Assembly: GCA_963734535.1 (NCBI GenBank) | Contig: CAVTHS010000008.1 | Location: 224,001 to 288,000 of the forward strand | Reading direction: 5' to 3' | DNA: 64,000 bases | Origin: an uncultured Chloroflexia bacterium | Lineage (GTDB): Bacteria; Chloroflexota; Limnocylindria; Limnocylindrales; CSP1-4 | Notes under the pieces: generated by a model | What the model saw: only the letters and a program-made list of their open reading frames with translations | Told to the model about the DNA's origin: nothing | The model's database searches: none | Program-made: the position numbers and the translations under genes | Shown here: piece by piece, positions 6,324 through 33,471 of the stretch | Numbering within the stretch: the stretch's first letter is position 1 | Layout of the letters: the number at the start of each line of letters is the position of its first letter

Positions 6324-7340
6324 TCAGACGTGGGGCGCAACGCCCTCCGCGAGCTGCTGCATCAGCTCGAGCTGCGCGTCGTGCTCGAGGAGCGGGACAT
6401 GGCTTCGGGCCACGAACTCGATGGGCACGCCAGCCTGCTCCCGGATGCCGAGCAGGACCTCGACGAGCTCGTCGGCCGTCCCGGCGTACGTCGCGCGGCC
6501 CTTCACCAGCTCATCGTCCGTGCGATCGAGCGGCGGCGGTGACGGCGGCGGGAGTGGCCGGGTTGCCGAGGCCCCCATGTCGGAGTACTTCCACTGCATC
6601 GCCCACAGCGCGTCGCGGTAGCGGGCAAGCGCCTCCCGGCGCGAGGCGCCGGGCAGGAGCACCGAGTAGTGGATGAACCGGAAGCTCGCCGGGTCGCGGC
6701 CGATGCGCTCGCACTCGTCGAGGACCCAGCGGACCTGCTCGACGAGCTTCCCGGCCGGGGCGTTCGCGAAGATCCCGTCGGCCAGGCGTGCGGCGCGGCG
6801 GATCGCGGGCTCCGCGCTACCGCCGACGAGCACCGGGATCGGCGTCGACGGCCTGGGCCGGACGGCGAGCGTCGGGAGGTCGAAGACGGCGCCGCTGTGC
6901 GTGAACGGCTCGCCGCTCCATGCCTGGGGGAGGATCCGGAGGATCTCGTCCATTGCCGCACCGCGACGGCGCGCGTCGGCTCCGAGCCCCGCGAACTCGA
7001 CCTCCGACCATCCCAGCCCGAGGCCGAGGACCAGCCGTCCGTGGCTGAGCAGCTGGACCGTTGCCGCATCCTCCGCCAGGCGGAGCGGGTGGTGCAACGG
7101 CGCGAGGACGACGCCCGTGCCGAGCTCGATTCGCGACGTCGCCTGCGCGAGCGCCGCGCTGACGACGAGGAGCGAGGGCATATACCCGTCGTCGACGAAG
7201 TGGTGCTCGGTCGTCCACACCGACGTGAAGCCGAGGTGCTCCGCCTCGACTGCGAGCCGGACCGTCTCGTCGTAGGCGCGGGTCCAGTCGGTCTCACCTG
7301 GCCTGAGCTGCGCGCTGAGAAGGCCGAAGCCAAGTCCCAT
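6324..7340 (-). CDS. LLM-class flavin-dependent oxidoreductase
   Basis: WTTEHHF, TSRIELGTGV, HPLRLAEDAAT, GRLVLGLGLGW. Confidence 0.9.
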   Translation of the reverse strand: MGLGFGLLSAQLRPGETDWTRAYDETVRLAVEAEHLGFTSVWTTEHHFVDDGYMPSLLVVSAALAQATSRIELGTGVVLAPLHHPLRLAEDAATVQLLSHGRLVLGLGLGWSEVEFAGLGADARRRGAAMDEILRILPQAWSGEPFTHSGAVFDLPTLAVRPRPSTPIPVLVGGSAEPAIRRAARLADGIFANAPAGKLVEQVRWVLDECERIGRDPASFRFIHYSVLLPGASRREALARYRDALWAMQWKYSDMGASATRPLPPPSPPPLDRTDDELVKGRATYAGTADELVEVLLGIREQAGVPIEFVARSHVPLLEHDAQLELMQQLAEGVAPHV

Positions 7341-7662
7341 GCCCGCCACGATAGCAGCCAACGCGACAGCGCGGCATGGGTCCGGCCGGCCCGTCGTCGA
7401 CGGGCAACCCGGCTCCCGGACCGATGGCAATCGTGACGCAGACCGGCGTCCGCCTCCACACCGGCCGGACCCGTTGCTGGAAAGTTGATGGTCTCGCGCG
7501 AAGTGTCGGGCGTTTTCCGCGCGTCCAGGTGGCGCTCGCGGAGCATCTGGCGGGTTGCTTGCCGCCGTGGGCGAGCCAGCACAAGATCAGCCCGTACCGG
7601 ACTGAAGCCCGTCCGCCCCAACGACGTTGGGTGATGGCCGACTTCCGCGAGGAGGACATCCC

Positions 7663-8061
7663 TTGGACGAGGGCCCGTTCTTTCATGGCACGAAAGCCGA
7701 CCTGCGGGTGGGCGACCTCCTCACGGCCGGCTTCCGTTCGAACTACCGGCCCGATGTCGTGATGAATCACGTCTACTTCACCGCGCTGCGTGACGGTGCC
7801 GGACTCGCCGCAGAGCTCGCGGCGGGCGAAGGTGCTCCGCGCGTCTACGTCGTTGAGCCAACGGGGACGTTCGAGGACGACCCCAACGTGACCGACAAGA
7901 AGTTCCCCGGCAACCCAACCCGGTCCTACCGCAGCAGAGAGCCGCTCAGGGTCGTCGGCGAGGTGACCGACTGGATGCGACAGACCCCCGCGGCGCTACA
8001 GGCATGGCGCGACCGGCTGGCGGCAATCCGCGCGGATGAACGAGGCGAGATCATCAACTGA
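7663..8061 (+). CDS. arr: NAD(+)--rifampin ADP-ribosyltransferase
   Basis: FFHGTKADL, HVYFT, YVVEPTGTFEDDPNVTDKKFPGNPTRSYRS; GGAGG before TTG start. Confidence 0.95.
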   Translation: MDEGPFFHGTKADLRVGDLLTAGFRSNYRPDVVMNHVYFTALRDGAGLAAELAAGEGAPRVYVVEPTGTFEDDPNVTDKKFPGNPTRSYRSREPLRVVGEVTDWMRQTPAALQAWRDRLAAIRADERGEIIN

Positions 8062-8118
8062 TCGGCGGAGGCTCGTGGACCGGGCCGATCGGCTCCCGTC
8101 TTCGGGCCGTCCGGCGCG

Positions 8119-8146
8119 ATGACAGATCATCTGTCGCTGATACATT
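8119..8146 (+). promoter_or_regulatory. Sigma70-like promoter with overlapping inverted repeat (candidate ArsR operator)
   Basis: ATGACA-16nt-TACATT with TGn extension; perfect IR GACAGAT-C-ATCTGTC at 8121-8135. Confidence 0.6.
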
Positions 8147-8156
8147 CCCCAGTGAG

Positions 8157-8916
8157 ATGCCACTGATCCTGATCCTGACGCCGCTCCTGTTCGGCCTCAG
8201 CTTCCTCTCGGGGATGCTCGGCCTCGGGGTCGCGTTCATCGCGATCCCGGTGCTGGGCCTCTTCGGGTTCGACCTCAAGGACGTCATCCAGCCCTGGGCG
8301 CTGCTGCTCAACGGGCTCACCGCGATCAGCGGCGCGATCGCCTTCTGGCGGGCGGGGATGGTCGACCGAGCGCGGCGCGCTGATCCTCATCGTCATCACG
8401 ACGATCGGCGCGCCCCTCGGCGTCTGGCTGCTGCAGTTCGCCTCCACCACCCTGGTCTGGTGGCTCTACGTGGGCGTGCTGCTCTTCCTGGCCGCCCGGA
8501 TGCTCCTCCCGAAGCCCCGCTCGACGGAGGACGTGGCGGAGATCACCGATGGCGGCCGGGTGCGGGCCGGGGCGGCCGCGGTGCCGATCAGCATCTTCGC
8601 GGGGTTCCTGGGCGTCGGGCCCGGCTTCCTGCTCATGCCGACCCTCACGCTCGTCGGCTACTCCGCCCGGCTCGCCGCGGCGACCAACTCGGTGGCCGTC
8701 ACCGTCCCGTCGTTCTCGGCGTTCGCGAGCCATCTCGGGACCGCGACCTTCGACTGGCCGATGGTGATCGTCACCTCGATCGCGTCCGTCATCGGCGCCT
8801 GGCTGGGCGCCCGCTTCACGGCGGGCCGGGTCAAGAGCGCCACGCTCTCCCGGATCTTCGCGATCGCGCTCGTCCTGCTCGCTGCCCAGCGCGCCTGGAT
8901 CCTGGTGGTCGGATGA
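8157..8916 (+). CDS. TauE/SafE (TSUP) sulfite exporter family protein, frameshifted near 8370
   Basis: SFLSGMLGLGVAFIAIP in the first frame and FAGFLGVGPGFLLMP in the second; the two TSUP Gly-rich repeats. Confidence 0.85.
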
Positions 8917-8996
8917 GCGCCACGGACGGGCAGGTCGTGCTTGCCGGGCGCAGGGTCGTCCCGTCTCGCCCACCCATGCTACGAAGGAGGCGTCCC

Positions 8997-9326
8997 ATGC
9001 CGATTGAGCTGCCCGTCCTGCAGGAGCTGCGGATGGACGTCCGCCCTCCCGATGTCCGGGACGGCGTCGCCATTGCCGCCCTCATCTCGGATCCCACGCG
9101 CGCCGGCATCCTCACCATGCTCCGCGGCGGACCGCATTGCGTGTGCGAGATGTCCGCCGCCTTCGGCGAGCGCCAGAACAACGTGAGCAACCACCTGGCG
9201 AAGCTGCGCGACGCGGGGCTCGTCCAGGTGAGCCGCGGTCCATCCGACGGACGCCGCGTCTACTACGAGCGGGACGAGACGGCCTGCGCCGCCGCCGTCG
9301 CGACCCTCGCGAGGATCCTCGGATGA
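8997..9326 (+). CDS. arsR: ArsR/SmtB-family repressor
   Basis: SDPTRAGIL...HCVCEM...NVSNHLAKLRDAGLV...GRRVYY. Confidence 0.88.
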   Translation: MPIELPVLQELRMDVRPPDVRDGVAIAALISDPTRAGILTMLRGGPHCVCEMSAAFGERQNNVSNHLAKLRDAGLVQVSRGPSDGRRVYYERDETACAAAVATLARILG

Positions 9327-10369
9327 CCGCGCTCCCGCTGCGCCGCGCCCACGTGCCGTTCCGCCTCCTGGCGCCCGTCGTGGTGGTCGGTTGGCTGGCG
9401 GCGTGGTTCGTCAACCTGCCCCTGGCCAACTGGGCGGCCTACGACCTCCTCGGCCTCGAGCGCGGATCGCACGTCGGCGACGCGGTCGCGTTCTTCCTGC
9501 TCGACGTCCCCAAGGTCCTGCTCCTGCTGCTCGGGATCATGACCGTGGTCTCGTTCCTGCGGAGCTACTTCCCGCCCGAGCGGATGCGCGCCGCGCTGGC
9601 CGGCCGCGGCACGCTCCCGGCGACCGTCGGGGCGGCGGCGTTCGGGGTGGTCACGCCCTTCTGCTCGTGCTCGGCCGTGCCGCTCTTCATCGGTTTCGTG
9701 GAGGCCGGGATCCCGCTCGGGGTCACCTTCGCGTTCCTGATCAGCAGCCCGATGGTCAACGAGGTCGCCCTGGTGCTGCTGTGGGGCCTCTTCGGTCCCG
9801 GGATCGCGCTCCTCTACATGGCCGCAGGGCTGACAGTCGCCGTGGTCGGCGGGCTGGTCCTCGGGCGCCTGCCGCTCGAGAAGTGGATCGAGCCGTGGGT
9901 CCTCGCGGTCCGCGCCGGCGGCGGCGCGACCTCGCTCGACCTCCGGCTCTCGGTGGAGCAGCGGATGCGCGACGCCTGGACATCCACGAAGGACCTCGTC
10001 CGCAAGGTCCTGCTCTACGTGATCATCGGGATCGGGATCGGTGCCTTCATCCACGGCTTCGTCCCGACGGAGCTCGTGGCCCAGATCGGTGGGCGCGACA
10101 ACCCGTTCGCCGTCCCGATCGTGGTCGCCATCGCGATCCCGCTCTACTCGAACGCCGCCGGCACGATCCCGATCGTCGAGGCGCTGCTCGGCAAGGGCAT
10201 GCCGCTCGGGACCACGCTCGCGTTCATGATGGCGATCGTGGCCATCAGCCTGCCCGAGTTCGTGATCCTGCGCCGGGTCATGAAGCTTCGCCTGATCGCC
10301 GTCTTCGCAATCGTCGTCGTCACCGGCATTCTCGCCGTCGGCTTCCTGTTCAACGCGCTCGGTCTGTGA
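9323..10369 (+). CDS. arsP: ArsP-type (DUF318) permease
   Basis: TPFCSCSAVPLFIGF, FLISSPMVNE, PLYSNAAG, SLPEFVILRRV. Confidence 0.88.
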   Translation: MTALPLRRAHVPFRLLAPVVVVGWLAAWFVNLPLANWAAYDLLGLERGSHVGDAVAFFLLDVPKVLLLLLGIMTVVSFLRSYFPPERMRAALAGRGTLPATVGAAAFGVVTPFCSCSAVPLFIGFVEAGIPLGVTFAFLISSPMVNEVALVLLWGLFGPGIALLYMAAGLTVAVVGGLVLGRLPLEKWIEPWVLAVRAGGGATSLDLRLSVEQRMRDAWTSTKDLVRKVLLYVIIGIGIGAFIHGFVPTELVAQIGGRDNPFAVPIVVAIAIPLYSNAAGTIPIVEALLGKGMPLGTTLAFMMAIVAISLPEFVILRRVMKLRLIAVFAIVVVTGILAVGFLFNALGL

Positions 10370-10383
10370 AGGAGGCACGTCGG

Positions 10384-10626
10384 ATGAAGGTCGTCGAGGT
10401 CCTCGGGCCCTGGCTGCAACAACTGCCAGCCTCCTCGAGCAGGCCGCCCTCGAAGCGGTCATCAGCTCCGGCGTGGACGCCAAGGTCGTCAAGGTCACCG
10501 ACTACGCCCGGATCGCTGCCTACCGCGTCATGCACACGCCCGGGCTCGTCATCGACGGCAAGGTGGTCAGCGCCGGCCGGATCCCGTCCGCGAGCCGAGA
10601 TCGCGGGCTGGCTCACGTTCGCATGA
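10384..10626 (+). CDS. Small redox-active disulfide protein (MTH895-like thioredoxin), copy 1, frameshifted
   Basis: Reconstructed MKVVEVLGPGCNNC...VVKVTDYARIAAYRVMHTPGLVIDGKVVSAGRIPS; paralog of the next gene. Confidence 0.8.
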   Translation: MKVVEVLGPWLQQLPASSSRPPSKRSSAPAWTPRSSRSPTTPGSLPTASCTRPGSSSTARWSAPAGSRPRAEIAGWLTFA

Positions 10627-10756
10627 ACCGGCGCGCGGTCCCGAATGAATCATCCCGTTCGGAACCGCGCGCCTCCGCCACCTGGTCATTTATCGCTGCG
10701 CGATCGCGCAGCGCGGAGCGCGGCGATTGCCGCCCACGAACGGAGGTTCCATCAGC

Positions 10757-10993
10757 ATGAAGAAGATCGAAGTCCTGGGTCCCGGCTGCGCAAATTGCGT
10801 CCGGCTCGAGAAGGTCGCCCGCGAGGCGGTCGAAATGGCCGGCGTCGAAGCCGAAGTCGTCAAGGTCACCGACTACGGCCAGATCATGAGCTACGGGATC
10901 ATGAGCACCCCTGGGCTCGTCATCGACGGCAAGGTCGTCAGCTACGGTCGCATCCCGTCGGCGGGCGACATCGCCGCCTGGCTCACCGAGTGA
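10757..10993 (+). CDS. Small redox-active disulfide protein (MTH895-like thioredoxin), copy 2
   Basis: MKKIEVLGPGCANC...GIMSTPGLVIDGKVVSYGRIPS; GGAGG RBS. Confidence 0.9.
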   Translation: MKKIEVLGPGCANCVRLEKVAREAVEMAGVEAEVVKVTDYGQIMSYGIMSTPGLVIDGKVVSYGRIPSAGDIAAWLTE

Positions 10994-11012
10994 CCGGCGT
11001 CGTTCCCGTCCC

Positions 11013-12062
11013 GTGACCGGGCTGCGCTCCCTCCAGGAGCACCTCAACCGATGGATGCTGGCCTACGTGAGCATCGCCATCCTCGTGGGCCTCCTGGCCG
11101 GCAACGGGCTCGCCGGGTTCGCGAAGAGCCAGGCGGGCATCCTGGGCGGCCTCACGACGGCCGCGGTCTTCCTGATCATCTACCCGATGATGGTCAACGT
11201 CCGCTTCGAGGCGCTGCTGCGGGCGGGCCGGAACCTGCGTGGCATCGGGGTCGCTCTGCTCTTCAACTTCGTCTGGGCGCCGCTCGTCGGCTGGGTCCTC
11301 GCAACGGTCTTCCTCTCCGACCCGCTCCTGGCGCTCGGCTTCCTGCTCGTGATGGTCGTGCCGTGCTCGAGCATGGCGATCGGGTACACCGGGCTCGCGA
11401 AGGGTGACCTTGAGCTCGCGACGGTCGTTGTCGCGCTCAGCTTCGTGCTCGCGATCGTCGCGGTCCCGCTCTGGATGTCGCTCTTCGCGAGCCGCTACGC
11501 GGTCCCGGTGCCGATCGGCGACCTGATCAGCTCCATCCTCACGGTCCTGCTCGCGCCGATGGTGCTCGGATATGCCACCCGGCGGGGGCTCCTCCGCTGG
11601 CTGGGACCGGTTCGGTTCGGGGCGATCGCACCGCTCTTCCCGGCGCTCTCCCTGCTGGGCATGTACGCGATCGTCTTCCTCATCTTCTTCGGCAAGGCCA
11701 CCCTCATCGTCGAGCGCTGGCAGACGGTGGCGATCCTGCTCGTCCCCAACACGATCTTCATCGGCCTGAGCCTGGTCGTGCTGACCTGGCTCGATCGGCG
11801 CCTGGGCATGGGCTTCGAGGAGCACATGGCCGTGGCGTTCACGAGCACCGGCAAGAACAACGGCACGGCGATCGCGATCGCCACCACCGCCTTCTCACCG
11901 CTCGTGGCCATCCCCGCTGCAACCATGCCGATCTTCCAGATCCTCCTCATGGTCCTCTACCTCCGCTCTGCTCCGCGGCTGCGGGCCCGGTTCGGGCGGC
12001 GCGCGGAGCCTGATCCGCTGATCCCCGTGGCTCAGGCCGACGTGGCCGAGGCGGTCACGTGA
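11013..12062 (+). CDS. acr3: Acr3-family arsenite efflux protein
   Basis: IIYPMMV, NFVWAP, VPCSSMA (conserved Cys), GLAKGD, GKNNG; multi-TM; ars context. Confidence 0.85.
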   Translation: MTGLRSLQEHLNRWMLAYVSIAILVGLLAGNGLAGFAKSQAGILGGLTTAAVFLIIYPMMVNVRFEALLRAGRNLRGIGVALLFNFVWAPLVGWVLATVFLSDPLLALGFLLVMVVPCSSMAIGYTGLAKGDLELATVVVALSFVLAIVAVPLWMSLFASRYAVPVPIGDLISSILTVLLAPMVLGYATRRGLLRWLGPVRFGAIAPLFPALSLLGMYAIVFLIFFGKATLIVERWQTVAILLVPNTIFIGLSLVVLTWLDRRLGMGFEEHMAVAFTSTGKNNGTAIAIATTAFSPLVAIPAATMPIFQILLMVLYLRSAPRLRARFGRRAEPDPLIPVAQADVAEAVT

Positions 12063-13036
12063 ACGCGACCGGTGTCGAAACAGGCGCGCCTGCGACGCGC
12101 CACGCGGAGATCGTCGAGCGCGCGGCCCCCTCGCGACGTCTCGCCGGTGCCCTCGTCCTCTCGTTGGCGGTCCTCGCGCTCGAGGTTGGCGGCGGCCTGG
12201 TCACCGGCAGCCTCGCGCTGCTGAGCGACGCCACGCACGTGGCGGTGGACGTGGTCGCCCTCCTTGTCGGGTTGGGGGCCGCCCGGCTGGCCACCCGATC
12301 CCCCGATGCCTCTCATACGTACGGGTTCCACCGGATGGAGACGCTCGGCGCCCTCGTGAACGCGGTCCTGCTCGTCGCGGCCAGCGCCGTGGTCCTCGTC
12401 GAGAGCGTCAGCCGGCTCGTCGCGCCATCGCCGGTCGAGGCCCTCGCGGTCCTCCCGATCGCCCTGATCGCGCTCGTCACGAACAGCGCGTCCGCGCTCC
12501 TCGTGCACGGCGCCGAGCGCCAGACGGTCGCCTCACGGGTCCTCGTGCTGCACCTGGCCGGTGATGCGGTCGGCGCGGTCGCGGTCATCGTGTCCTCGCT
12601 CGTCATCCTCGCCGGGGGCCCGCCGGCCGCGGACGCGATCGCCAGTCTCGTCATCGGCGTGCTGCTGGGCCTCGCCGGGCTGCGACTGCTCGGGCAGATC
12701 GCCCACCTCCTCGCGGAGGGCGTCCCCGGCGGCGTCTCGCTCGGCGCTGCGGCGGAGGCGCTCAGCGGCACGGCTGGGGTGTGCGGCGTGCACGACCTCC
12801 ATGTCTGGGCCCTCGCTGACGATCTTCCGATCGTCACGGCGCACGTCGAGGTCCTGCCCGACTCGAACGCCGCCGTCGTCCTGCGGGCGGCGACGGCGGC
12901 ACTCAACGCCGAAGGTTTCGCGCACGTCACGCTCCAGCCGGAGGACGCACCGTGCGGGCAGGGCCTCCCCGCCGCGCCGGCCGACCGGGCCGCAATCACC
13001 GCCACAACCGCCCCACAGAAGGAGTCCCTCCCATGA
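12059..13036 (+). CDS. Cation diffusion facilitator (CzcD/ZitB-like)
   Basis: GSLALLSDATHVAVD, HTYGFHRMETLGALVN, LHLAGD, VHDLHVW, HVTLQPE. Confidence 0.92.
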   Translation: MNATGVETGAPATRHAEIVERAAPSRRLAGALVLSLAVLALEVGGGLVTGSLALLSDATHVAVDVVALLVGLGAARLATRSPDASHTYGFHRMETLGALVNAVLLVAASAVVLVESVSRLVAPSPVEALAVLPIALIALVTNSASALLVHGAERQTVASRVLVLHLAGDAVGAVAVIVSSLVILAGGPPAADAIASLVIGVLLGLAGLRLLGQIAHLLAEGVPGGVSLGAAAEALSGTAGVCGVHDLHVWALADDLPIVTAHVEVLPDSNAAVVLRAATAALNAEGFAHVTLQPEDAPCGQGLPAAPADRAAITATTAPQKESLP

Positions 13037-13636
13037 ACGAGACCGCGATCCTGGCCGAGGCCCTCGCCTTCCACGGCCACAAGTGCTGGGCCAGCACCGC
13101 TGGGGTGCGGCTGGGCCTCGCGGCGATGGAGGCGCTCGGCGCCCCCCGGGCCGGAGCGAAACAGCTCCACGCAATCATCGAGACCGGTGACTACCACGGC
13201 GGCATGTGCTTCGGCGACGGCATCCAGTTCACGACCGGCTGCACGTTCGGCAAGGGCAACATCGAGAAGATCCGGCGAGGGCAAGTTCGCCGTCACCCTC
13301 ATCGACAAGGCCTCGAACCGCGCCGTGCGGGTTGCGTATCGGCCGACGCTCCAGCCGCGCATCAAGGCAACGCCGTTCATGACCGAAACGAGCCGGTGGC
13401 GTGTCGCCGACGGAGATCCCCGAGGCCGAGCAGATGGAGGTGGTCAACCTCGTCTGGAACGCGGAAGCGGACGAGATCATGACCATCGGCCCCATCGGCC
13501 GAGCGACTGGAGCGAGCCCGAGGAGGTCGTCCGCTTCCTCGTCTGCCCGTCGTGCGGCGAGCTCGTGGCGGAGCCCTACGCCCGGGTGGCCGAGGGCAGG
13601 ATCGTCTGCGCTGCGTGCTCCGGTTACCCGCGCTGA
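13033..13636 (+). CDS. FmdE-family protein with C-terminal Zn ribbon, multiply frameshifted
   Basis: AFHGHKC...GVRLG, CFGDGIQFTTGCTFGKGN, GKFAVTL, CPSCGE...CAAC. Confidence 0.85.
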
Positions 13637-13659
13637 GCCGAACCTGACAGTACCCGGTC

Positions 13660-14409
13660 ATGCTGCTTTATCTCGTCGGCGGGGCCACGGTGTTCATCGG
13701 CTCCGGCGTCATGGCGATGGCCGGGCTGGGTGCAGCGTTCCTGTTCGTCCCGCTCTTCTTCTACCTCGGGGTGCCGCTGGGCCAGGCAACGTCGGCCGCG
13801 CTTCTCCTGAACGCCGTGAGCCTGTCGGCCGCGACGATCGCATACGCCCGGGCGGGGCTGATCGACTGGCGGGCCGGTGTTCCCGTCCTGATCGCCGCGG
13901 TCATCCTTGCGCCCATCGGGGCCGCGCTCACCGCCCAGGTGGATCGAGACCTGCTCCTCGGCCTCTTCGTCGGCTTCCTCGTCTTCGCGGGCGCGATGAT
14001 GCTGTTCTACCGGCCTCGGGCCGGTGGTCGTGACCGGACGGTCGCTGCGGAGGCCGGAGTGGGAGCCGCGGTGGGCGGCGTGGCTGGCTTCCTTGGCGGC
14101 CTGCTCGGGGTCGGCGGCGGCAACGTCATCCTGCCCGGCCTGACCTGGCTCGGGCTCGACGCCAAGGTGGCCGCGGGGACCACCGCGCTGGCGGTCGTGT
14201 TCTCGTCGCTGTCGGGGTTCCTGGGCCACGCGGCGCTCGGTGGCCTGGACCCAGGGTTCCTGGTGACGATGGCGGCCCTCGCGGCGGCCGGCTCCCTCGC
14301 CGGATCGCACGTCATGCGGACCAGGCTCAGCGGCGCCCAGCTGAAGCGGGTCATCGGCGTCCTGTTGTTCGTGATCGCCGCGAAGATCGCGCTGGACCTC
14401 ATCTCATGA
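13660..14409 (+). CDS. TauE/SafE (TSUP) exporter, copy 2
   Basis: MAGLGAAFLFVP and GFLGGLLGVGGGNVILP repeats; KVAAGTT. Confidence 0.9.
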   Translation: MLLYLVGGATVFIGSGVMAMAGLGAAFLFVPLFFYLGVPLGQATSAALLLNAVSLSAATIAYARAGLIDWRAGVPVLIAAVILAPIGAALTAQVDRDLLLGLFVGFLVFAGAMMLFYRPRAGGRDRTVAAEAGVGAAVGGVAGFLGGLLGVGGGNVILPGLTWLGLDAKVAAGTTALAVVFSSLSGFLGHAALGGLDPGFLVTMAALAAAGSLAGSHVMRTRLSGAQLKRVIGVLLFVIAAKIALDLIS

Positions 14410-14426
14410 AGGAAGGACCCATCCCG

Positions 14427-15599
14427 ATGAGCACCGTCACGCCCGGGAATCCGTCAACGGCCGCGCAGCCGACGCTGCTGCGCGGGTTCCACCCGGGCTG
14501 GTACGGGGCCGTGATGGGCACCGCGATCGTCGGGATCGTGGGCTACCAGAACCCGGGTCAGCTGGCCGACCTGGCACAGGCTGCGAAGGCGTTCGGCGTT
14601 CTCATGGTCGGGCTGTCTGCCCTGCTCGCGGTTGGGCTCGGCATCCCGTACGTGGCGCGCTGGATCCGCCACCCGGACGCGGCGCGCGCCGACCTGGCAA
14701 ACCCTCTCGCGGGTGCCATGTACGCCACGGTCCCCGGCGGGATCCTCGTTCTCGCGGTCGGCATCGCCACCGTCGGTCCGTCCGTGCTGCGTGACGACGT
14801 CACGGTCACGTTGGTCGCCGTTCTCGCGGCCGTCGGGATCGTCCTGGCCCTCGCGGTCGCCGTCGCCTTCGCCTCGCTGCTCTTCCTGAGGCACGGCGTG
14901 GATCCGCAGGCGGCGAACGGCGCCTGGTTCATCCCGCCCGTGGTCACGATCATCGCCCCGATGGTCATTGCACCGTTGATCCCGCACGTCGCCGTGGCGG
15001 ACCTCCCACTGCTCGTCTTCACCGCCTACGCCCTGTGGGGCATGGGCTTCCTGCTCTTTCTCCTCGTCGCCTCGCTCCTGTATGACCGGCTGGTGTTCCA
15101 CCCGCTGCCAGCGGCCCCACTCGCGCCGTCGTTCTGGATCGGTCTCGGCCCGCTCGGCGTCGGCGGCCTGGCCCTGGTGCGCATCGCCCAGGCCGGCACG
15201 CCGCTGTGGGGTGACGCCGCGCCTGCCGTGATCGCCGCCTCGTCGATCGCGGCGACGGTCCTGTGGGGGTTCGGCCTCTGGTGGCTCGCGGCCGCGATCG
15301 TCCTCCTGGTCGCGTACCTGCGGCGCAGCCGGCTGCCCTACGGCCTGGGCTGGTGGGCGTTCACGTTCCCGCTCGGCGCGTTCACGGCGAGCACGCTCGC
15401 CCTGGGCCGGGGCTGGCATGCGGGCGCGATCGAAGCCCTCGCCGCGGTCCTCTTCCTGGCCCTCGTGGCCGCCTGGGCGATCGTGTCCCTCGGCACGCTG
15501 CGGGCCGTTCGCTCCGGCGTCGGCCTGGCGGCGCTGAAGGTCCCGAAACGGACCACTCGGCCCGCCGGAAGGGTCCAGGTGGCACAAACGCACGTTTGA
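14427..15599 (+). CDS. TDT/SLAC1-family anion transporter (tellurite/C4-dicarboxylate/sulfite efflux)
   Basis: FHPGWYGAVMGT, WFIPPV, SFWIGLGP, WWAFTFPLG. Confidence 0.9.
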   Translation: MSTVTPGNPSTAAQPTLLRGFHPGWYGAVMGTAIVGIVGYQNPGQLADLAQAAKAFGVLMVGLSALLAVGLGIPYVARWIRHPDAARADLANPLAGAMYATVPGGILVLAVGIATVGPSVLRDDVTVTLVAVLAAVGIVLALAVAVAFASLLFLRHGVDPQAANGAWFIPPVVTIIAPMVIAPLIPHVAVADLPLLVFTAYALWGMGFLLFLLVASLLYDRLVFHPLPAAPLAPSFWIGLGPLGVGGLALVRIAQAGTPLWGDAAPAVIAASSIAATVLWGFGLWWLAAAIVLLVAYLRRSRLPYGLGWWAFTFPLGAFTASTLALGRGWHAGAIEALAAVLFLALVAAWAIVSLGTLRAVRSGVGLAALKVPKRTTRPAGRVQVAQTHV

Positions 15600-15616
15600 C
15601 TAACGTCGGTTAGCAT
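15596..15616 (+). promoter_or_regulatory. Internal promoter/operator before second arsR
   Basis: TTGACT, IR CTAAC-GTCG-GTTAG (15600-15613), and TAGCAT 7 nt before the in-frame ATG at 15624. Confidence 0.5.
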
Positions 15617-15623
15617 GTGGACC

Positions 15624-16037
15624 ATGGACGCCCACGTGTCGCACCCGATCGGCCCCCCGCTGGCACCCGACGTACTCATTCCTCTCCAGGCCCTGGCGGA
15701 ACCGACACGTGCCAGGATCGTCTCCCTGCTCGGCCACGGCGAGCACTGCGTCTGCGACGTCGGGGAGATGCTCGGCCTGAGCCCCGCCCTCGTCTCGCAC
15801 CACCTGCGGACCCTGCGCGCCAGCGGTCTCCTGCGCGAGCGCAGGAGCGGGCGCTGGGTCTACTACTCGCTCGACCTCGACCGTCTCGCGGCGCTCCGCG
15901 CCGCACTCGCCGACCTGCTCACGCCCGGCGAGGCGGCGGCGACCGCGTGTCTGTGCTCGGACTGTGGGACGAGCCGACCGGCCATGCCGCAGCCCGGGCT
16001 TCGCAGACTGCCGGTCCTCGCGGAGCTCGCGCCGTGA
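15624..16037 (+). CDS. arsR: ArsR/SmtB-family repressor with C-terminal Cys cluster
   Basis: ALAEPTRARI...HCVCDV...SHHLRTLRASGL...GRWVYYSL...CLCSDC. Confidence 0.9.
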   Translation: MDAHVSHPIGPPLAPDVLIPLQALAEPTRARIVSLLGHGEHCVCDVGEMLGLSPALVSHHLRTLRASGLLRERRSGRWVYYSLDLDRLAALRAALADLLTPGEAAATACLCSDCGTSRPAMPQPGLRRLPVLAELAP

Positions 16038-16354
16038 CCTGCTCGGTGCTCATCGTCGGGATGCCATCGCCGGCGGGCTGCGCCTCGACGAAGACCTGGA
16101 AGGCGGCCGCCGCGTTCGTGGAAGCGCGCCTGGTCGCGCGGTTCGGGCCTGCGGTTGCGTTCGAATACGCCGAGCTGTTCAGCCCGGACATGGCCAACCA
16201 CCCGGACGTCGAGGAGGCGATCGCGGCCGGGGAGGCCGTCCCGCCGATCGTCGTCATCGACGGCGTCCGCCGCTTCGCCGGCGGGAAGCTCAACGTGTCT
16301 GCCATCGAGCGCGCCGTCGCCGTACGGCTCGTCCCGGATGTCGTCAATGCCTGA
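16034..16354 (+). CDS. Small thioredoxin-like (YuzD-like) hypothetical protein
   Basis: GTG overlaps arsR stop; AGCAS, RFGPAVAFEY, PPIVVIDG (cis-Pro motif), GGKLN. Confidence 0.6.
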   Translation: MTCSVLIVGMPSPAGCASTKTWKAAAAFVEARLVARFGPAVAFEYAELFSPDMANHPDVEEAIAAGEAVPPIVVIDGVRRFAGGKLNVSAIERAVAVRLVPDVVNA

Positions 16355-16464
16355 CGTAGCCGCCGACCCGGTCGAACTCGCTTCGGACACGGTCCTTGAT
16401 CGGGTCGTGTCCACCGCCCCATCGGCCCCAACCACCACGGCTCACCCCCAAGAGGTTGCGTCCC

Positions 16465-16917
16465 ATGATTGATCCGATAGCCGGCCCCGCGGCCCTCGAC
16501 GTCGAGATCTTCGACCCACCGTTGTGCTGCCCGACCGGCCTGTGTGGCCCGGTCCTCGACACGACCCTGGTCGACCTCGGTGAGGCCATCAACGCCCTTC
16601 AGTCCGACGGGCGCACGGTGGTCCGCCACATGATGACCGCCGATCCGCAGGCGTTCATGCGCAACCGCGAGGTCTACCAGCTCATCCGGGAGCGCCAGCT
16701 CGCCGCGCTGCCGATCACGGTCGTCCGCGGACGGATCGTGAAGACGGATGCCTACGCGAGCCTCGACGAGATGCGCGTCGCCCTCGAGCTCCAGCCGGCC
16801 CGGCACCGGCACCGTGACCATGCTCCCTTCGCCCGGCCTCTGGTTCCGACGGACGCCAGGGAGAGGACGCTCGTGGTCGCTCACACCAAGCTCTCGATAG
16901 GAGCCCGAGCGGAGTGA
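16465..16917 (+). CDS. arsD: Arsenic metallochaperone ArsD
   Basis: EIFDPPLCCPTGLCGP, PQAFMRN, LPITVV; C-terminus possibly extended by an indel. Confidence 0.9.
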   Translation: MIDPIAGPAALDVEIFDPPLCCPTGLCGPVLDTTLVDLGEAINALQSDGRTVVRHMMTADPQAFMRNREVYQLIRERQLAALPITVVRGRIVKTDAYASLDEMRVALELQPARHRHRDHAPFARPLVPTDARERTLVVAHTKLSIGARAE

Positions 16918-16924
16918 CGGCAGC

Positions 16925-18342
16925 ATGAGCGTGGCACCGGCCAGGAGCCACCGCCCGACCGGGCGGGAGGCGATGCGCGACGCGGTCGAGTACTGCGCCG
17001 ACTGCACGAGCTGCATGGACCTCATGGAAGGGGAGTGCCGGTTCTTCGCGGAGCTCTTCCCGCTCGAGTGGATCCGAGGCCAGGAGCCGATATCCGACGC
17101 GACGCGTTCGCAAGCTCGCGGACGCACTGCACCTACTGCGGGCTCTGCCCATGCCCCGAGATCCCAGCCCACCTCACGGAGGGGAAGAGCGAGTACGTCG
17201 CCGAGAACGGGCTGCCTCTGTCCGTGCGGCTGCTCACCGACGTCCCACGCCTGGCCCGCGTGTGCGGCACGCTCCCGCGCGTCTACGAGGCCCTGCAGTC
17301 CAGCAAGCCGGTGCAGCCGCTCCTGCGGAAGATCAGCGGCGTCCATCCCGATCGGACGTTCCCGCGCTTCGCGAAGGAGAGCTTCTTCACGTGGGCCGCG
17401 AGGACCGGGCGCACGAAGCGCGAGGACGGCGGCCGTCACGCGGCGTACTTCGCGGGCTGCACGGTCGGATACCTGTTCCCCGAGGTCGGGCGGGCGGTCG
17501 TCGCCGTCCTCGAACGGAACGGCGTGCCGGTCTACGTCCCGCCGCAGGAGTGCTGCGGGATGCCGTTCCTCGTCGAAGGCGACCAGCGCCGCGCCCTGGC
17601 CAGGACCGAGTCCAACGTCGAGCAGCTGCTCGAGGTGCGCCGGGCGGGCGACGACATCGTCAGCTCCTGCCCGACGTGCGGGTTCTTCCTCAAGGTGCTC
17701 CTGAAGGAGAACGCGTACTACTCGGACGCCTACCAGCGGTCCGTCGATGCACGAGACGACGAGATCCGGATCCCGACCCGCGAGGGCGGTCCCGGAAGCT
17801 TCAAGGTCATGGCCCGACCCACCTACGGGGACGTCCTCACGGACGACGGCTACTTCTCGTCCATTCCGCCGCTCGAGCGCATCGAGGTCGCCGAGAACGT
17901 GCTCGACACCGGGGACTACCTGGCCCATCTGCTCGCCCAGGGGCAGCTGGACACGCGGTTCGCACCGATCGCCGAGCGGATCGCGTACTTCCCACCGTGC
18001 CACCAGCGGACGCAGGAAAAGACTCGCCCCTATGCCGACCTGCTCAGGCTGATCCCGGAGCTGTCGGTCCAGGTCGTCGGCGAGGACGCCTGTTGCGGGA
18101 TGGGTGGCAGCGTCGGGTTCAAGGCGGACGTCCACGAGGCGTCGCTCGAGATCGGGCGCCCCCTGTTCGAGAGCCTCGAGAAGGCTCGCCCCCGACGCGA
18201 TCGTGACCGAGTGCCTGAGCTGCCGGCTGCAGTTCAACCACGCGCTCAAGTACCCCGTCTTCCATCCGATGGAGATCCTCGCGAGGGCCTACGGCGAGCG
18301 TCGAGTCGAGTCCGACGCCCGCGATGGGAAGCACGGTCGTGA
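16925..18342 (+). CDS. GlpC/HdrD-like Fe-S oxidoreductase (ferredoxin-type motifs plus two CCG domains), frameshifted; end approximate
   Basis: CADCTSC, CTYCGLCPC, YFAGC, ECCGMP, SSCPTC, PPCH, ACCGMGGSVG, TECLSCRLQ, HPMEIL. Confidence 0.85.
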
Positions 18343-18413
18343 GGACGCCCGAGATCGCGACAGAACGTGCCGACTGCGCGCACTCAACGGGCCGCCGGCG
18401 AAAGGACGCACCA

Positions 18414-20280
18414 GTGACGCAGTTCCTCTTCTTCTCCGGCAAGGGCGGCGTGGGCAAGACCACCATGGCCTGCACCACGGCGGTGGCCGAGGCCGATGCC
18501 GGCACGCGCGTCCTGATCGTGACGACGGACCCCGCCTCGAACCTGGCCGACGTCTTCGAGCAGCCGATCGGCCACGCGATCACCCCGATCGCCGGCGTCC
18601 CGAACCTGTGGGGGATGGAGATCGACCCCGATCGCGCGACCGCCGAGTACACCGACCGGACGCTGGCGCCGATCCGCGAGATCTTCCCGCACGAGATCGT
18701 GCGGGTCATGGAGGAGCAGCTCGCCGGGCCCTGCACGGCGGAGGTCGCCGCGTTCGACCGATTCGCGGATTTCCTCGATCCGACGGCTCCCGCCATGCCG
18801 CCCGCCGGCGGCGCTGTGTTCGACCTCGTGATCTTCGACACCGCCCCGACCGGCCACACCGTGCGCCTGCTCGAGCTGCCCGAGGCCTGGTCGAAGAGCA
18901 TCGCCGAATCCGCGGCAGGGCTCGGGCCAGACCTGCATCGGCCCGGCGGCGGCGATCGCCGACGCGAAGGTCAAGTACGAGCGCGCACTCGCGGCGCTTC
19001 GCGACCAGTCGCTGACGCGCTTCGCCTTCGTGCTCCATCCGGAGGCGACTGCGATCGCCGAGACGCGCCGCGCGGGGATGAGCTCGCCCGCCTGGGGATC
19101 GTCACGACCGAGCTCATCGTGAACGGCATCCTGCCCGCCGAAGAGGGCTCGACTCCCTTCTTCGCCGCCCGGATCGCGATGCAGGAGCGGTACCTCACCG
19201 AGATCGCGCGGCAGCTGCCGATGCCCACCCGCCGCGTCCCGCTCCTCGACGGCGAGGTCCGCGGGAGTCGCCCGGCTGCGCGCCCTCGTGCCGCTGCTCG
19301 CCGACGAGCAGGCCGCGCGGCCGGCCTTCGGCCACGCGACGTCTCGGTCAGCGCGACCGACGGTGGATTACGACACCGCGGTGAGGGCGGTCCTGCTACC
19401 AGACGGTGGCCCCCGGACCATCTTCTTCGCCGGCAAGGGCGGCGTGGGCAAGACGGTCGCCTCGTGCGCCACTGCCCTCTGGGCGGCACGCGCGGGCAAT
19501 CGAACCCTGCTCGTCACGACCGATCCTGCGGCCCACATCGGGCAGGTCCTTGGCGCAACCGTGGGCACCGAGCCCGCGCCGGTCGACGGCGTCGAGGGGC
19601 TGTGGGCCGCCCGCGTGGATGCCAAGGCAGCCGCGGTCGCCTACACGGACCGGATCATCGCCGACGCCGTGGCCCGCGGACGCAGCCCAGCCTCGGTTGC
19701 CGCGATGCGCGAGGAGCTGGACTCGCCCTGCACCGAGGAGATGGCGGCGTTCGACCAGTTCATCGAGCTCGCCAGTCGCGACTCGTTCGACGTCACCGTC
19801 TTCGACACGGCGCCCACGGGCCACACGATGCGGCTGCTCGAGCTGCCCATCGACTGGAGCCGCCAGATCGACGTCAAGGTCTTCGCCTCGGTCGACACCG
19901 CGGCCGCCGACGACGTCGCGAAGGCCCGTTTCGGCGGGGTGATCGAGATGATGCGCGACCCGGCGCAGAGCACCTTCGCCTTCGTGATGTACCCGGAGTC
20001 GACGCCGATCGTCGAGGCGAGCCGAGCCATCAGCGAGCTCAAGACGCTCGGGATCCCGCTCGGGCTCGTCGTCGCCAACATGGTCCTGCCCGACGAGGCG
20101 TGCCGGACGCCGTACGCCCGCGCGCGCCGCGAGATGCAGCAGGCGTACCTCGCCGACATCGAGGCGCGCTTCGATGCCCCGGTGCTCGAGATCCCGCTCC
20201 TCGACGGCGAGGTCGTCGGTCTCGAACGACTCTCCGAGCTGCTCGAGCGGACCCTCGCTCCCACCTCTCTCGTCGCCTGA
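18414..20280 (+). CDS. arsA: Arsenical pump-driving ATPase ArsA (two NBDs), frameshifted
   Basis: Two GKGGVGKT P-loops, TTDPA twice, GPCT/SPCT Cys, DTAPTGHT twice. Confidence 0.93.
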
Positions 20281-20297
20281 CTGGAGGCACCACGACC

Positions 20298-20723
20298 ATG
20301 CTCGATCTTTCGACCCAGGAGCCGGCCGGCATCGCGGCCGCACCGCCCACCGCGGAGGCCGAGGCGCTCGGGGCGGCCGGGACGTTCGGGGCTGCCCTGC
20401 GGGCGAGCCCCGAGTTCGCCGCGCTCCTCGCGGCCAACGACTCGCTCTCGGCGGATGTTCGGGCGACCGAGGCCATCGACGCCTTCGGGGCTCGTCAGGC
20501 GGAGCTTCGAACCGAGGCGATGATGGGGGTTCTCACCGCGGCCCAGCGCGCGGACCTGGAACGCCTGCAGAAGACGATGCTCGACGTGCCGACGGTGGCA
20601 ACCTATGTCGCCGCGACGGAGGCGTTCGGCGCGGTCTGCCGCGAGACGGCGGCCGTCCTCAGCGCCCAGATCGGGATCGACTTCGCCGCGAACTGCCGCT
20701 CCGGCGGCTGCTGCGGCGGCTGA
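20298..20723 (+). CDS. YlbF/YmcA-like helical protein with C-terminal CxxxxCC tail
   Basis: FGAALRASPEF...IGIDFAANCRSGGCCGG; GGAGG RBS. Confidence 0.78.
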   Translation: MLDLSTQEPAGIAAAPPTAEAEALGAAGTFGAALRASPEFAALLAANDSLSADVRATEAIDAFGARQAELRTEAMMGVLTAAQRADLERLQKTMLDVPTVATYVAATEAFGAVCRETAAVLSAQIGIDFAANCRSGGCCGG

Positions 20724-20735
20724 GAGGAACGTCAG

Positions 20736-21104
20736 ATGCTCAGCACCGAGATCAACGAGGCGGCGGTCGGGTTCGGCCGGGCGCTGCGCGCGGCGCCCGC
20801 GGTCGCCATCTACCGTATCGCCACCGAGGCGCTCGAGGCGGATCCCGTCGCCCAGGGCCTGCTCGCCGAGCTGCGCGAGCAGCAAGGAGGCCTTGCTCGC
20901 ATGCAGCGGGCCGGGCTGACCCCGAGCCAGGAGGAGATCGAGCGGATGCGGCTGTGCCAGGCGTCGGTCCGGGGGAACCAAGCGATCATGGCCCACCTGC
21001 GGGCGACGAACGACGTCAAGGCGTACCTGCCGGTCGTCGCTCGAACGGTCAGTGCGGCGCTGGGCGCCGACTATGCCAGCCTCATCGGACCGACCAGCTG
21101 CTGA
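20736..21104 (+). CDS. YlbF/YmcA-like helical protein ending in Cys
   Basis: FGRALRAAPAV...ALEADPVAQ...LGADYASLIGPTSC; paralogous to the preceding gene. Confidence 0.75.
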   Translation: MLSTEINEAAVGFGRALRAAPAVAIYRIATEALEADPVAQGLLAELREQQGGLARMQRAGLTPSQEEIERMRLCQASVRGNQAIMAHLRATNDVKAYLPVVARTVSAALGADYASLIGPTSC

Positions 21105-21386
21105 CGTCACGGATCGGCGCGGTCATCCGTCGATCATCAGTCCCAATGGCGGCCGCGGGCCGCCGAGTTGCGCGGCCGTCGTGACGGACGGCCCTTGCTG
21201 CCCAGCCTGGACCGGGACGAGCATCCGCGGTGACGGTAGCCTGCGCCCCGGACCGGCATCGGACCGACCGGAACGCACGTCGAGCGGCGCGCCCCCAGCG
21301 CGGTCTTCGAAGATCGTGGCCTCCCCTCCGCCCGGCCCGGCACGCCGCCTGCGGCCGGCCGACCGTCGGCGCACAAGGAGGTCACC

Positions 21387-21578
21387 ATGGCACTCGCCGC
21401 CGGTCCCATGACACAGGCATCACCGCGCCTGATCGCAGGGCTGGGGCTGATCGCGATGATCGCGATCGTCGCGGCCGCGCTCGTCGCGCAGGCGCGACCC
21501 GGCACCGCTTCCGAGACGGGGACGTACCGGCTCTCGGACACGACGATGCTGCTGCAGCAGGTGCGCGCCGCCCCGTAG
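21387..21578 (+). CDS. Small single-TM/secreted hypothetical protein
   Basis: Strong AAGGAGG RBS; one hydrophobic segment LIAGLGLIAMIAIVAAALV. Confidence 0.55.
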   Translation: MALAAGPMTQASPRLIAGLGLIAMIAIVAAALVAQARPGTASETGTYRLSDTTMLLQQVRAAP

Positions 21579-21753
21579 CGCGCCGAACGCCACAGCGGCG
21601 AGGCCGGCCATGGCGGGCCGGCCTCGCTGATTCACGACCCGGGGTCGCGGCTCGCCACGAGCACGGCCTGGCGTGGCAGCGGGTGCCGCCTCGACCAGCC
21701 GCCGGCCAGGGCAGGCAGCCCCGGCGGGACGATGCCGGCCGCGGCCGACGTGG

Positions 21754-32537: not shown

Positions 32538-33471
<934 letters not shown>

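Follow-up and report, generated by a model that had tools for sequence, protein, structure and literature searches.

The question raised by the arsenic-resistance (ars) island at positions 8119-21104 of the DNA analysed here (a window of 64,000 nucleotides from an uncultured Chloroflexia bacterium, positions 224,001 to 288,000 of contig CAVTHS010000008.1 in assembly GCA_963734535.1) is what ars genes do in the company of families named for sulfur export and for disulfide or Fe-S chemistry. A preliminary description of the same DNA had seen in this company, and in the lack of arsC and arsM, a candidate system for the detoxification of sulfur-bound arsenic. On balance, the analysis of profiles, gene neighbourhoods and related genomes argues for a horizontally inserted mosaic island, probably read as one long ArsR-controlled transcription unit, which would export As(III) and organoarsenicals with the help of a thiol relay.

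Because the G+C content of the window is about 70%, raw lists of open reading frames (ORFs) were uninformative, and genes were located first with a plot of third-position G+C and then with Pfam and NCBIfam profiles. The profile matches gave 17 genes, all on the + strand between 8157 and 21104, in the order that had been claimed for them: TauE, ArsR, an ArsP-type permease of family PF03773, two Thioredoxin_3 (Trx_3) proteins, an SBF-family Acr3-like carrier, CDF and FmdE with a zinc ribbon in the first half, followed in the second by TauE, TDT/SLAC1, ArsR, an ORF of 106 amino acids (aa), ArsD, a protein with two CCG domains, ArsA and two Com_YlbF proteins. The intergenic gaps do not exceed about 100 nucleotides (nt), and four junctions overlap as ATGA or GTGA. 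No Pfam match at E ≤ 0.01 was found for the eight antisense ORFs within 8057-21002, and the five weak matches to intrinsic terminators in the island (2.6 expected) include none at a gene end. The earlier observation was borne out in part, with the caveats that several genes are interrupted by frameshifts, that the Acr3 label is too narrow and that ArsC and ArsM are encoded upstream.

By comparison with relatives, the island belongs to a 14.4-kb segment (7376..21752) that is an insertion into a conserved backbone and comprises Arr, the ars island and one further ORF. In the relative G005 about 150 bp separate the luciferase-like gene (window 6299-7375) from the aminotransferase region (21753 onward), and in G007 the site carries a different insert of 6 kb, with that genome's own ars cluster 0.9 Mb away. 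Around 7376-21752 a search for direct repeats or att-like sites gave only chance-like short GC-rich matches, and neither integrase nor transposase was among the Pfam matches of the window. The rifampin ADP-ribosyltransferase Arr (7606..8058, +; PF12120, 168.5 bits; NF033144, 165.7 bits, cut-off 130) directly precedes the ars genes in the same insertion, yet it is not part of the ars island proper; homology to the sister island of G010, a genome of the same genus, starts at 8082, past Arr, and Arr is missing from the G010 island. The last gene of the inserted segment is a 112-aa ORF (21240-21575) with good codon-position G+C and no Pfam match.

The island itself is, on the same comparative grounds, a mosaic of three blocks, which relatives carry apart from one another: block A (TauE to the two thioredoxins), block B (Acr3-like carrier to TDT) and block C (second ArsR to the YlbF pair). 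In relatives of the genus the core runs TauE-ArsR-(ArsP)-Trx-Trx-[XdhC]-ArsR-small ORF-ArsD-ArsA-YlbF-YlbF, and it is found without block B and without the CCG gene in G007, G011, G015, G001 and G014; block B genes are present elsewhere, in other combinations, in G008, G017 and G005. Among related metagenome loci, block C precedes block A in L143, L145, L147 and L149, and follows it in L170, L171, L175 and L176. One contig of sequencing run X2 joins 10994 to 21137, that is, block A alone with the same right flank, which at 88% likeness is a hint only. Depth differences between the blocks and uncovered stretches in sequencing runs were not interpretable and were set aside. No region collinear with window 41001-61000 was found in G007.

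The expectation that the accessory genes would be linked to ars genes elsewhere held in the neighbourhood survey: each of CCG, the YlbF pair, the small YuzD-like ORF, Trx_3, TauE and TDT turned up again in the ars clusters of further genomes. The YlbF pair, Trx_3 and the small ORF are strongly linked to ars genes; CCG is strongly but not exclusively so, and for TauE, TDT and FmdE the linkage is patchy. In 301 sampled Chloroflexota genomes, relatives of the first YlbF protein (YlbF-1) were found in 11 and ArsD in 15; of the 14 other genomes with ArsD, five (from three families) have the YlbF pair behind ArsA and one has it 6 kb off, while in six it is undetected and in two the contig ends too early to judge. 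The 69 metagenome loci, found with a YlbF-1 alignment, are mostly close kin and not independent; in these, a same-strand ArsA stops no more than 400 nt upstream of YlbF-1 in 26 of the 27 loci whose upstream sequence exceeds 1.5 kb (35 of 37 where it exceeds 0.6 kb), and the second protein, YlbF-2, follows YlbF-1 in 60 of the 69. Four distant YlbF-1 loci (36-44% identity) likewise lie in ars clusters. The remaining families were counted in the same 14 ArsD genomes and 69 metagenome loci, respectively: the small ORF in 4 and 12, Trx_3 in 7 and 13, TauE in 2 and 11, TDT in 2 and 3, FmdE in 1-2 and 2, and CCG in 0 and 1.

CCG was followed over 80 genome loci, of which 78 lie outside the lineage of the window, in other phyla, mostly in Desulfuromonadales and Desulfobacterales and many on short contigs. 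Neighbours were sought by tblastn with the island proteins, and Acr3, ArsP, ArsC of the low-molecular-weight phosphatase (LMWP) type, ArsA or ArsD were counted as core ars genes. A core ars gene was found within 500 bp of CCG in 23 of the 78 loci, within 3 kb in 34 and within 10 kb in 38, and 65 of 70 nearby ars matches are on the same strand as CCG. Annotation with Pfam and NCBIfam covered first 15 loci with full flanks and then 5 of the 7 other full-flank loci. In 13 of the first 15, the direct neighbours include true Acr3 (368-458 bits), LMWP ArsC, ArsA-ArsD (L044), ArsP and Trx_3; AhpD-like and CcdA-type genes were further direct neighbours at the annotated loci.

Block A opens with TauE/SafE (TSUP) permease 1 (8157..8916; PF01925, 98.6+30 bits), which is split by a frameshift at about 8369, with profile positions 5-64 in one frame and 64-236 in another; its ortholog has only a far-sub-cut-off NCBIfam match (23 bits vs 383). 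ArsR-1 (8997..9326; PF01022; NF033788, 70.7 bits, cut-off 55) carries a Cys-Val-Cys pair in the helix preceding the recognition helix, and its stop is overlapped (ATGA) by the start of the ArsP-type permease (9323..10369; PF03773, 223.9 bits). The permease is assigned to the ArsP type because both the PF03773 fold and a Cys-Ser-Cys motif in a membrane segment are present, the membrane Cys-(Ser/Thr)-Cys motif of ArsP permeases being that defined in the text of a published survey (PMC4435449); the NCBIfam matches to SaoE and SO_0444 are weak. The two thioredoxins, Thioredoxin_3 copy 1 (10381..10626; PF13192; three frameshifts, read in three frames) and copy 2 of the MTH895/ArsE family (10757..10993; TIGR00412, 99.4 bits, cut-off 62; CxxC present), are tandem paralogs that form a direct repeat (D1) of 78% over 162 nt. 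With the modules that combine ArsP with 'redox-active disulfide protein 2'/ArsE-family proteins (Castillo and Saier 2010; Campylobacter jejuni ArsP) block A shares the PF03773 Cys-Ser-Cys permease, TIGR00412 thioredoxins and ArsR; it differs from them in the TauE at its head, the doubled thioredoxin, the lack of CcdA and the weakness of the similarity to SaoE/SO_0444. The occurrence of Trx_3 with ArsP, CcdA and thioredoxin in ars operons is reported in a published account (PMC2963123), and a preprint has proposed, from comparisons, that Cys-Cys tails, small thioredoxins overloaded with Cys and permeases with Cys-Ser-Cys are marks of heavy-metal contact (bioRxiv 10.1101/2022.07.06.499078).

Block B begins with a divergent SBF-family ('Acr3-like') carrier (11013..12062; PF01758, 136 bits). 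The gene had been called acr3, and an SBF-family carrier is indeed present, but a canonical Acr3 it is not (TIGR00832, 108.8 bits, below the cut-off of 282.8). Its stop is overlapped (GTGA) by the start of a CDF cation-efflux transporter (12059..13036; PF01545, PF16916; TIGR01297, 199.6 bits, cut-off 82), and then follow an FmdE-domain protein with a C-terminal zinc ribbon (13033..13636), which has two to three frameshifts, with FmdE profile positions 1-65 in one frame and the zinc ribbon in another, and whose 219-aa orthologs in G017 and G005 are intact; TauE/SafE permease 2 (13660..14409; PF01925, 132.8 bits, full length), without any NCBIfam match at E ≤ 0.001; and a TDT/SLAC1 (TehA-type) anion transporter (14406..15599; PF03595, 214 bits), whose start overlaps the TauE-2 stop (ATGA). 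The preliminary label of sulfur-export genes stands insofar as both TauE copies belong to PF01925 and the TDT family is represented; as names of a function the labels are family-level only, since TDT is below its cut-off (TIGR00816, 190.4 bits vs 237.25) and TauE is without a significant equivalog match. No sulfonate- or sulfite-forming enzyme near the TauE genes was found among the profile matches of the window.

Block C starts with ArsR-2 (15615..16037; PF01022; NF033788, 90.1 bits), which has a Cys-Val-Cys pair and a Cys-rich C-terminal tail. Neither ArsR protein reaches the cut-off for a BigR-type persulfide/sulfite sensor (NF040642, 28.4 and 41 bits, cut-off 155). The small 106-aa ORF after it (16034..16354), for which a thioredoxin fold is suspected, has no Pfam or NCBIfam match at E ≤ 0.01; the label 'yuzD-like' finds no profile to support it, and the one lead comes from a protein language model, the neighbours in that model being DUF1462 on 18% of one cluster (0.92) and ArsD (0.90). 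A match to a sequence in the PDB was discarded as chance (E 0.69). The same ORF is found between ArsR-2 and ArsD, or beside ArsA, in G007, G216, G255, G036 and the 12 metagenome loci counted above. The metallochaperone ArsD (16465..16917; NF033727, 96.2 bits, cut-off 90; PF06953, 92.3 bits) has the N-terminal Cys-Cys...Cys triad, and its tail is possibly lengthened by a frameshift near 16798 (orthologs have 110-119 aa).

Next comes the GlpC/HdrD-like CCG Fe-S protein (16925..18400, the exact stop being unclear; PF02754 twice, 78.6 bits, cut-off 20.6), in which N-terminal Cys motifs for two clusters are followed by two CCG domains. It is 92% identical to two intact proteins of 468 aa (P0003, P0004), its N- and C-terminal parts lie in another frame, and both CCG motifs are invariant in 23 sequences of a family of about 465 aa. 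With GlpC/HdrD/GlcF-type proteins it shares the N-terminal motifs for two [4Fe-4S] clusters and the two CCG domains, and GlpC is its best NCBIfam match; it differs from GlpC in scoring below the cut-offs (241.2 vs 278 and 149.4 vs 279.9 bits) and in having no GlpA or GlpB in the window or at 20 annotated loci, where no flavoprotein or membrane partner was seen to adjoin the CCG gene either. A further difference is that ars clusters make up about half of its loci. The sole metagenome locus with CCG (L145) reads ArsR-YuzD-like-ArsD-CCG-Trx_3-ArsA-YlbF-YlbF-ArsR-TauE-ArsR-ArsP-Trx_3, and its extra small thioredoxin right after CCG would fit a CCG-thioredoxin redox pair.

The two-domain ATPase ArsA (18414..20280) is matched by PF02374 in pieces that alternate between frames, with three frameshifts, and three conserved motifs each hold a Cys that is invariant across nine orthologs. 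Its G007 ortholog passes the cut-off of TIGR00345 (464.5 bits, cut-off 135) and stays below those of TIGR04291 (507 vs 650 bits) and NF041417. Downstream lie YlbF-like protein 1 (20298..20723; PF06133; HcsL-like), with the C-terminus Cys-x4-Cys-Cys-Gly-Gly, in which the Cys-Cys is invariant in 10 of 10 sequences and is preceded by a nearly invariant Cys, and YlbF-like protein 2 (20736..21104; PF06133, 47.2 bits), with a single C-terminal Cys that appears as Ser-Cys or Thr-Cys in nine of nine orthologs. The NCBIfam models ArsA_halo and halo-CC-star HcsL/HcsS (NF041417, NF041416, NF041415) likewise describe ArsA followed by YlbF/YmcA-fold proteins ending in Cys-Cys, and they are the best NCBIfam matches for ArsA and YlbF-1 and the second-best for YlbF-2, from which it follows that the NCBIfam curators had noticed the same ArsA-YlbF pairing in haloarchaea. 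The likeness, which is a comparison by model names only, stops short of the cut-offs (611 vs 800, 59 vs 140 and 23.6 vs 55 bits, the first two for the G007 orthologs), and the present organisms are Chloroflexota, not haloarchaea. A second likeness is to RicA/RicF (YmcA/YlbF) of Bacillus subtilis, which belong to the same family PF06133 and are likewise encoded as a pair; for the present pair no YaaT/RicT partner was seen, and it lies downstream of ArsA with Cys-Cys and Cys tails. The Ric complex holds Fe-S clusters. A predicted complex of ArsA with YlbF-1 scored 0.00 in two runs made without controls, which is no evidence either way, and a 769-aa ArsA-YlbF fusion in G001 was rejected as a frameshift artefact, its residues 362-628 being out-of-frame filler.

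Set against the classical arsRDABC or arsRD-A-acr3 operons (the R773 type of Escherichia coli and its Acr3 variants), the island shares the Cys-pair ArsR, ArsD, the two-domain ArsA and a co-oriented carrier. It differs from them in having no ArsB, no canonical Acr3, no ArsC in the unit, two regulators and nine extra genes, and its ArsA scores best on the haloarchaeal ArsA_halo model, not on TIGR04291.

The statement that ArsC and ArsM are lacking holds for the cluster, where profile searches of 8119-21104 found neither, and fails for the genome, where both were found 14-16 kb upstream on the same contig. A candidate ArsC of the LMWP type lies at 215975-216355 of the contig (G000:C8:215975-216355), 16 kb upstream and just outside the window, beside pstCAB-phoU; it has the P-loop Cys and a Cys...Cys pair and reaches 129.9 bits on TIGR02691, below the cut-off of 174.3. 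A divergent ArsR/ArsM pair follows at C8:~216900-218400, with ArsM at 265.5 bits (cut-off 263). No glutaredoxin-type ArsC was found in the genome, which is 89.9% complete. In the related metagenome loci, LMWP ArsC lies in the same cluster in 11 of 69 and ArsM in 5 of 69. The premise that missing arsC and arsM point to a special chemistry has thereby lost its footing: because both genes are upstream here and inside the islands of relatives, their absence from the cluster carries no signal. The region that holds them (L108, G000:C8:212001-224000 together with window 1-507) is a phosphate-regulon locus, in the order pstC-pstA-pstB-phoU-ArsC(LMWP)-SixA-like, then ArsR(-)/ArsM(+) and a PhoR-like kinase, followed by proS, a Pit transporter with a PhoU-like gene and a PhoB-like response regulator. 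Both functions, the reduction of arsenate and methylation, are therefore placed with phosphate uptake and apart from the efflux island.

If these parts work together as an efflux island, both ArsR repressors would be released by As(III) and by trivalent organoarsenicals, the latter coming from the upstream ArsM or from uptake. Block A would export trivalent, probably organic, arsenicals, with the ArsE-family thioredoxins serving the Cys-Ser-Cys permease; block B would add an arsenite carrier, a divalent-cation exporter (CDF with FmdE) and two anion exporters (TauE and TDT); block C would be the ATP-driven part, in which ArsA may energise either the divergent Acr3-like carrier or the ArsP permease. 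ArsD, and probably also the YuzD-like ORF and the Cys-tailed YlbF pair, would bind As(III) through three thiolates and deliver it to ArsA or receive it from there. The GlpC/HdrD-like CCG protein may draw electrons from an Fe-S donor and, through its CCG clusters, hold these vicinal thiols or the small thioredoxins in the reduced state; such a role would be fitting where an organism or a condition lacks an operon-encoded thioredoxin reductase. As(V) reduction and methylation would be provided in trans by ArsC and ArsM. What the genes are and how they are ordered, the insertion, the modular make-up and the conserved linkage are observed; every substrate named here, the thiol relay and the part given to the CCG protein are deduced.

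Several findings weigh against this reading, the frameshift density discussed further below among them. The sole sigma-70-like promoter match in 7400-21800 (8119..8146, +, 10 nt 5' of TauE-1) is not significant, one having been observed and 0.6 expected from shuffles. The ArsB or Acr3 carrier of an ars efflux system was not recognised: canonical Acr3 is absent from the genome, the carrier at 11013..12062 is its sole Acr3-like match, the one weak ArsB-family match (PF02040, 77.9 bits) is on another contig (C4), and the carrier partner of ArsA is uncertain. The ArsA and YlbF proteins stay below the NCBIfam equivalog cut-offs, at 611 vs 800 and 59 vs 140 bits. Searched with the island proteins, 28 of the 78 CCG loci have no ars-like gene, and the CCG family is therefore not exclusively ars-linked; the five loci annotated later have heterogeneous neighbours, four being without an ars gene and one with ArsR alone; and the absence of CCG from 14 of 14 other ArsD loci in the Chloroflexota sample makes it dispensable for the ArsDA unit. 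Contigs of relatives from an RNA library do cover parts of the island (one of 757 nt spans the CCG/ArsA junction), and these may reflect DNA carry-over.

Among the alternatives, the one that survives best concerns block B alone, and it is rather unlikely: CDF, FmdE, TauE-2 and TDT would be unrelated to arsenic, a module for divalent cations and oxyanions (tellurite, selenite, sulfite or dicarboxylate) that landed inside an ars island. The CDF protein scores best as ZitB-like (166.7 bits, below the cut-off of 408), and CDF accounts for only 2 of about 700 ars-operon transporters in a published survey (PMC4435449); G005 has its FmdE-TauE pair and its TDT away from any ArsDA, and in G017 and G005 TDT stands beside polyphosphate kinase and CHAD genes. 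The ars context nevertheless recurs, as ArsR-ArsP-FmdE-TauE-TDT in G017, ArsR-Trx-TauE-Acr3-like-CDF-...-FmdE-TauE-TDT in G008, TauE-FmdE-XdhC-ArsR-ArsD-ArsA in G255 and ArsP-Trx-TDT-ArsR-ArsD-ArsA in G183, and also in L130, L131 and L175. The 4-nt overlaps of the Acr3-like gene with CDF and of TauE-2 with TDT, and the lack of a regulator of block B's own, also speak for its being part of the unit.

A further alternative, which is unlikely, is about the condition of the genes rather than their nature and would be compatible with any functional reading of the intact form: the island would be decaying, its frameshifts being real mutations and ArsA, CCG, TauE-1, Trx-1 and FmdE mostly pseudogenes in this strain. 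The gene inventory given earlier was right as to identities but not as to intactness, since TauE-1, Trx-1, FmdE, CCG, ArsA and possibly ArsD are frame-broken in the assembly. From the frame plot, split profile matches and all-frame translations, at least 12 one-base frameshifts were counted in 13 kb: one in TauE-1 (~8369), three in Trx-1 (~10375-10431 and ~10594), two or three in FmdE (13271 and ~13382-13496), two or three in CCG (~17106-17126 and 18183), three in ArsA (18917, ~19076 and 19266) and perhaps one in ArsD (~16798). Their density of about 0.9/kb, compared with about 0.1-0.15/kb in the rest of the window, where some 5-7 split genes are spread over about 50 kb, favours decay, as does the accessory nature of the insertion.

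The sites were compared with contigs of close relatives from three DNA runs and one RNA library. At 8369, ~10375-10431, 13271, 18183, 18917 and 19266 the extra base of the window is missing from contigs of relatives: at 8368-8369 from those of run X2 and RNA run X18; at 10375, 10404, 10411 and 10431 in the Trx-1 region, one base each; at 13271 from an X2 contig; at 18183 from contigs of three DNA runs; and at 18917 and 19266 from those of all four. The sister genome G010 is also without it at some of these sites (e.g. 8368-8369 and 13271). Because the relatives' contigs and G010 are without the extra base at six sites, the frameshifts are read as consensus errors, and the genes are probably functional in the organism; a proponent of decay would reply that these contigs stem from relatives, not demonstrably from the same strain. 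The lesions are, however, all single-base indels, most of them where two or three identical bases stand in a row; the shifted pieces show neither an in-frame stop nor a larger deletion, and the codon-position signature is fully kept (GC of 0.85-0.98 in the shifted pieces). Between the G010 island, 91-95% identical, and the window there are 53 isolated one-base gaps, and in G010 the breaks in the same genes fall elsewhere; intact orthologs are known for ArsA (620-621 aa in G007, G011, G015 and L019) and for TauE (251 aa in G007). Housekeeping genes of the window are split too, such as an amidohydrolase (27735-29521) and a transketolase (three pieces, 59851-61698), and the quality of the genome (the completeness given above, 7.1% contamination, 14 contigs) fits an assembly in which some indel errors remain. 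As a measure of assembly error outside the island, gaps not divisible by three in alignments with G005 and G007 were tried and abandoned; genes intact by Pfam gave 13 such runs in 5 kb, which are alignment artefacts at 75-85% identity.

Split or fused genes outside the island were noted at 27735-29521, 32278-33756, 48187-49251, 59851-61698 and 61880-63595; besides the amidohydrolase, read in two frames, and the transketolase they comprise a fusion of an aldolase with a HAD hydrolase and incomplete matches to Ldh and HAD. Indel errors appear to be genome-wide in the assembly, to judge from these genes, and they call for caution with this window, where they break real genes.

The dedicated thio-arsenic system of the preliminary description is improbable, and no observation favours it in particular; the interpretation in that description is as a whole supported in part. 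In that proposal, the CCG protein and the thioredoxins would desulfurate or reduce thioarsenates or As-thiol adducts, As(III) would leave through Acr3, ArsA and ArsP, and the sulfur anion through TauE and TDT. The ars linkage of TauE, TDT, CCG, Trx_3 and Cys-rich small proteins in many genomes is consistent with it, and so is the finding of close island relatives among contigs from soil and permafrost runs, habitats for which there are reports of thiolated arsenic. One CCG locus (L038) has YeeE-TusA directly downstream, the sole sulfur-trafficking neighbour seen, and a 2018 review holds that a thioarsenate resistance mechanism should exist, while calling it unverified (PMC6205960). Against it stand ArsC and ArsM, 14-16 kb upstream and within the islands of relatives; the profile matches of the island, which are the 17 families and include no rhodanese, persulfide dioxygenase, SQR, DsrE or TusA, nor any other sulfurtransferase, persulfide or sulfide-oxidation gene; the rarity of TauE (2 of 14), TDT (2 of 14) and CCG (0 of 14) at the other ArsD loci of the phylum sample; the independent movement of block B from ArsDA; and the fact that 'sulfite exporter' is a family label. 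The anoxic setting that had been assumed does not follow, as the organism encodes a haem-copper oxidase and an obligately anoxic life is not implied. A sulfur-oxidation model of the sHdr/LbpA type was rejected, there being no HdrA, HdrC, DsrE or TusA in the window.

In a wider form the same idea would make two or three of these families (the CCG protein, the Cys-Cys-tailed YlbF pair and the YuzD-like ORF) true members of the arsenic machinery of many phyla and, with the TSUP and TDT exporters, a relay driven by thiols and Fe-S that processes sulfur-bound arsenic (thioarsenates or As(III)-thiolates); this is hardly probable, and the same low probability covers, jointly with the relay, the reduction of the As-S bond at the CCG cluster and the separate export of As(III) and the sulfur anion. 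If true, the relay would be the first genetic system for thioarsenate resistance.

The main interest, and what may be new here, lies in the conserved, ars-linked and uncharacterised families (CCG, the YlbF pair and the YuzD-like ORF), although an earlier description is possible. A search of the open literature returned no paper on CCG or TauE in ars clusters and no experimental description of the CCG or YlbF ars families, the YlbF type being met in NCBIfam model names alone. The ars islands are well studied, yet these accessory families show a strong cross-phylum ars linkage, and they may account for the working of ArsA in the absence of ArsB and for the reduced state of arsenic-binding thiols in anaerobes.

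Three further kinds of gene were seen near ars or CCG genes. GcvH-like lipoyl-carrier genes adjoin them in Chloroflexota, Desulfuromonadales and Desulfobacterales, with none in the window, at L011 (G007) 11008-14000, L015 (G008) 49-3116, L124 (G153) 8226-9434, L041 8013-8756, L043 1570-2423 and L058 13765-14691, often together with DGC-domain (PF08859) genes, a dihydrolipoamide-dehydrogenase-like flavoprotein and OsmC; a lipoyl dithiol acting as arsenite buffer or decoy is a possibility suggested by this arrangement. Molybdenum/tungsten-cofactor genes (XdhC-like, NifX-like, MobA/MobB, MoeA, MoaA and aldehyde:ferredoxin oxidoreductase) lie in or beside ars/CCG clusters at L011 8036-9172 (G007), L116 3330-3983 (G255) and L015 7980-8393 (G008), and at about 11400-15400 of L027, from the arsenate-respiring Geobacter sp. 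OR-1, and of L041. Small AhpD/CMD-like proteins, finally, adjoin CCG in ars clusters of Desulfuromonadales (L023 11340-11558, L027 7829-8104 and L056 8860-9180), and their NCBIfam relatives are GSU3128-family (seleno)proteins and ArsM-AhpD fusion selenoproteins.

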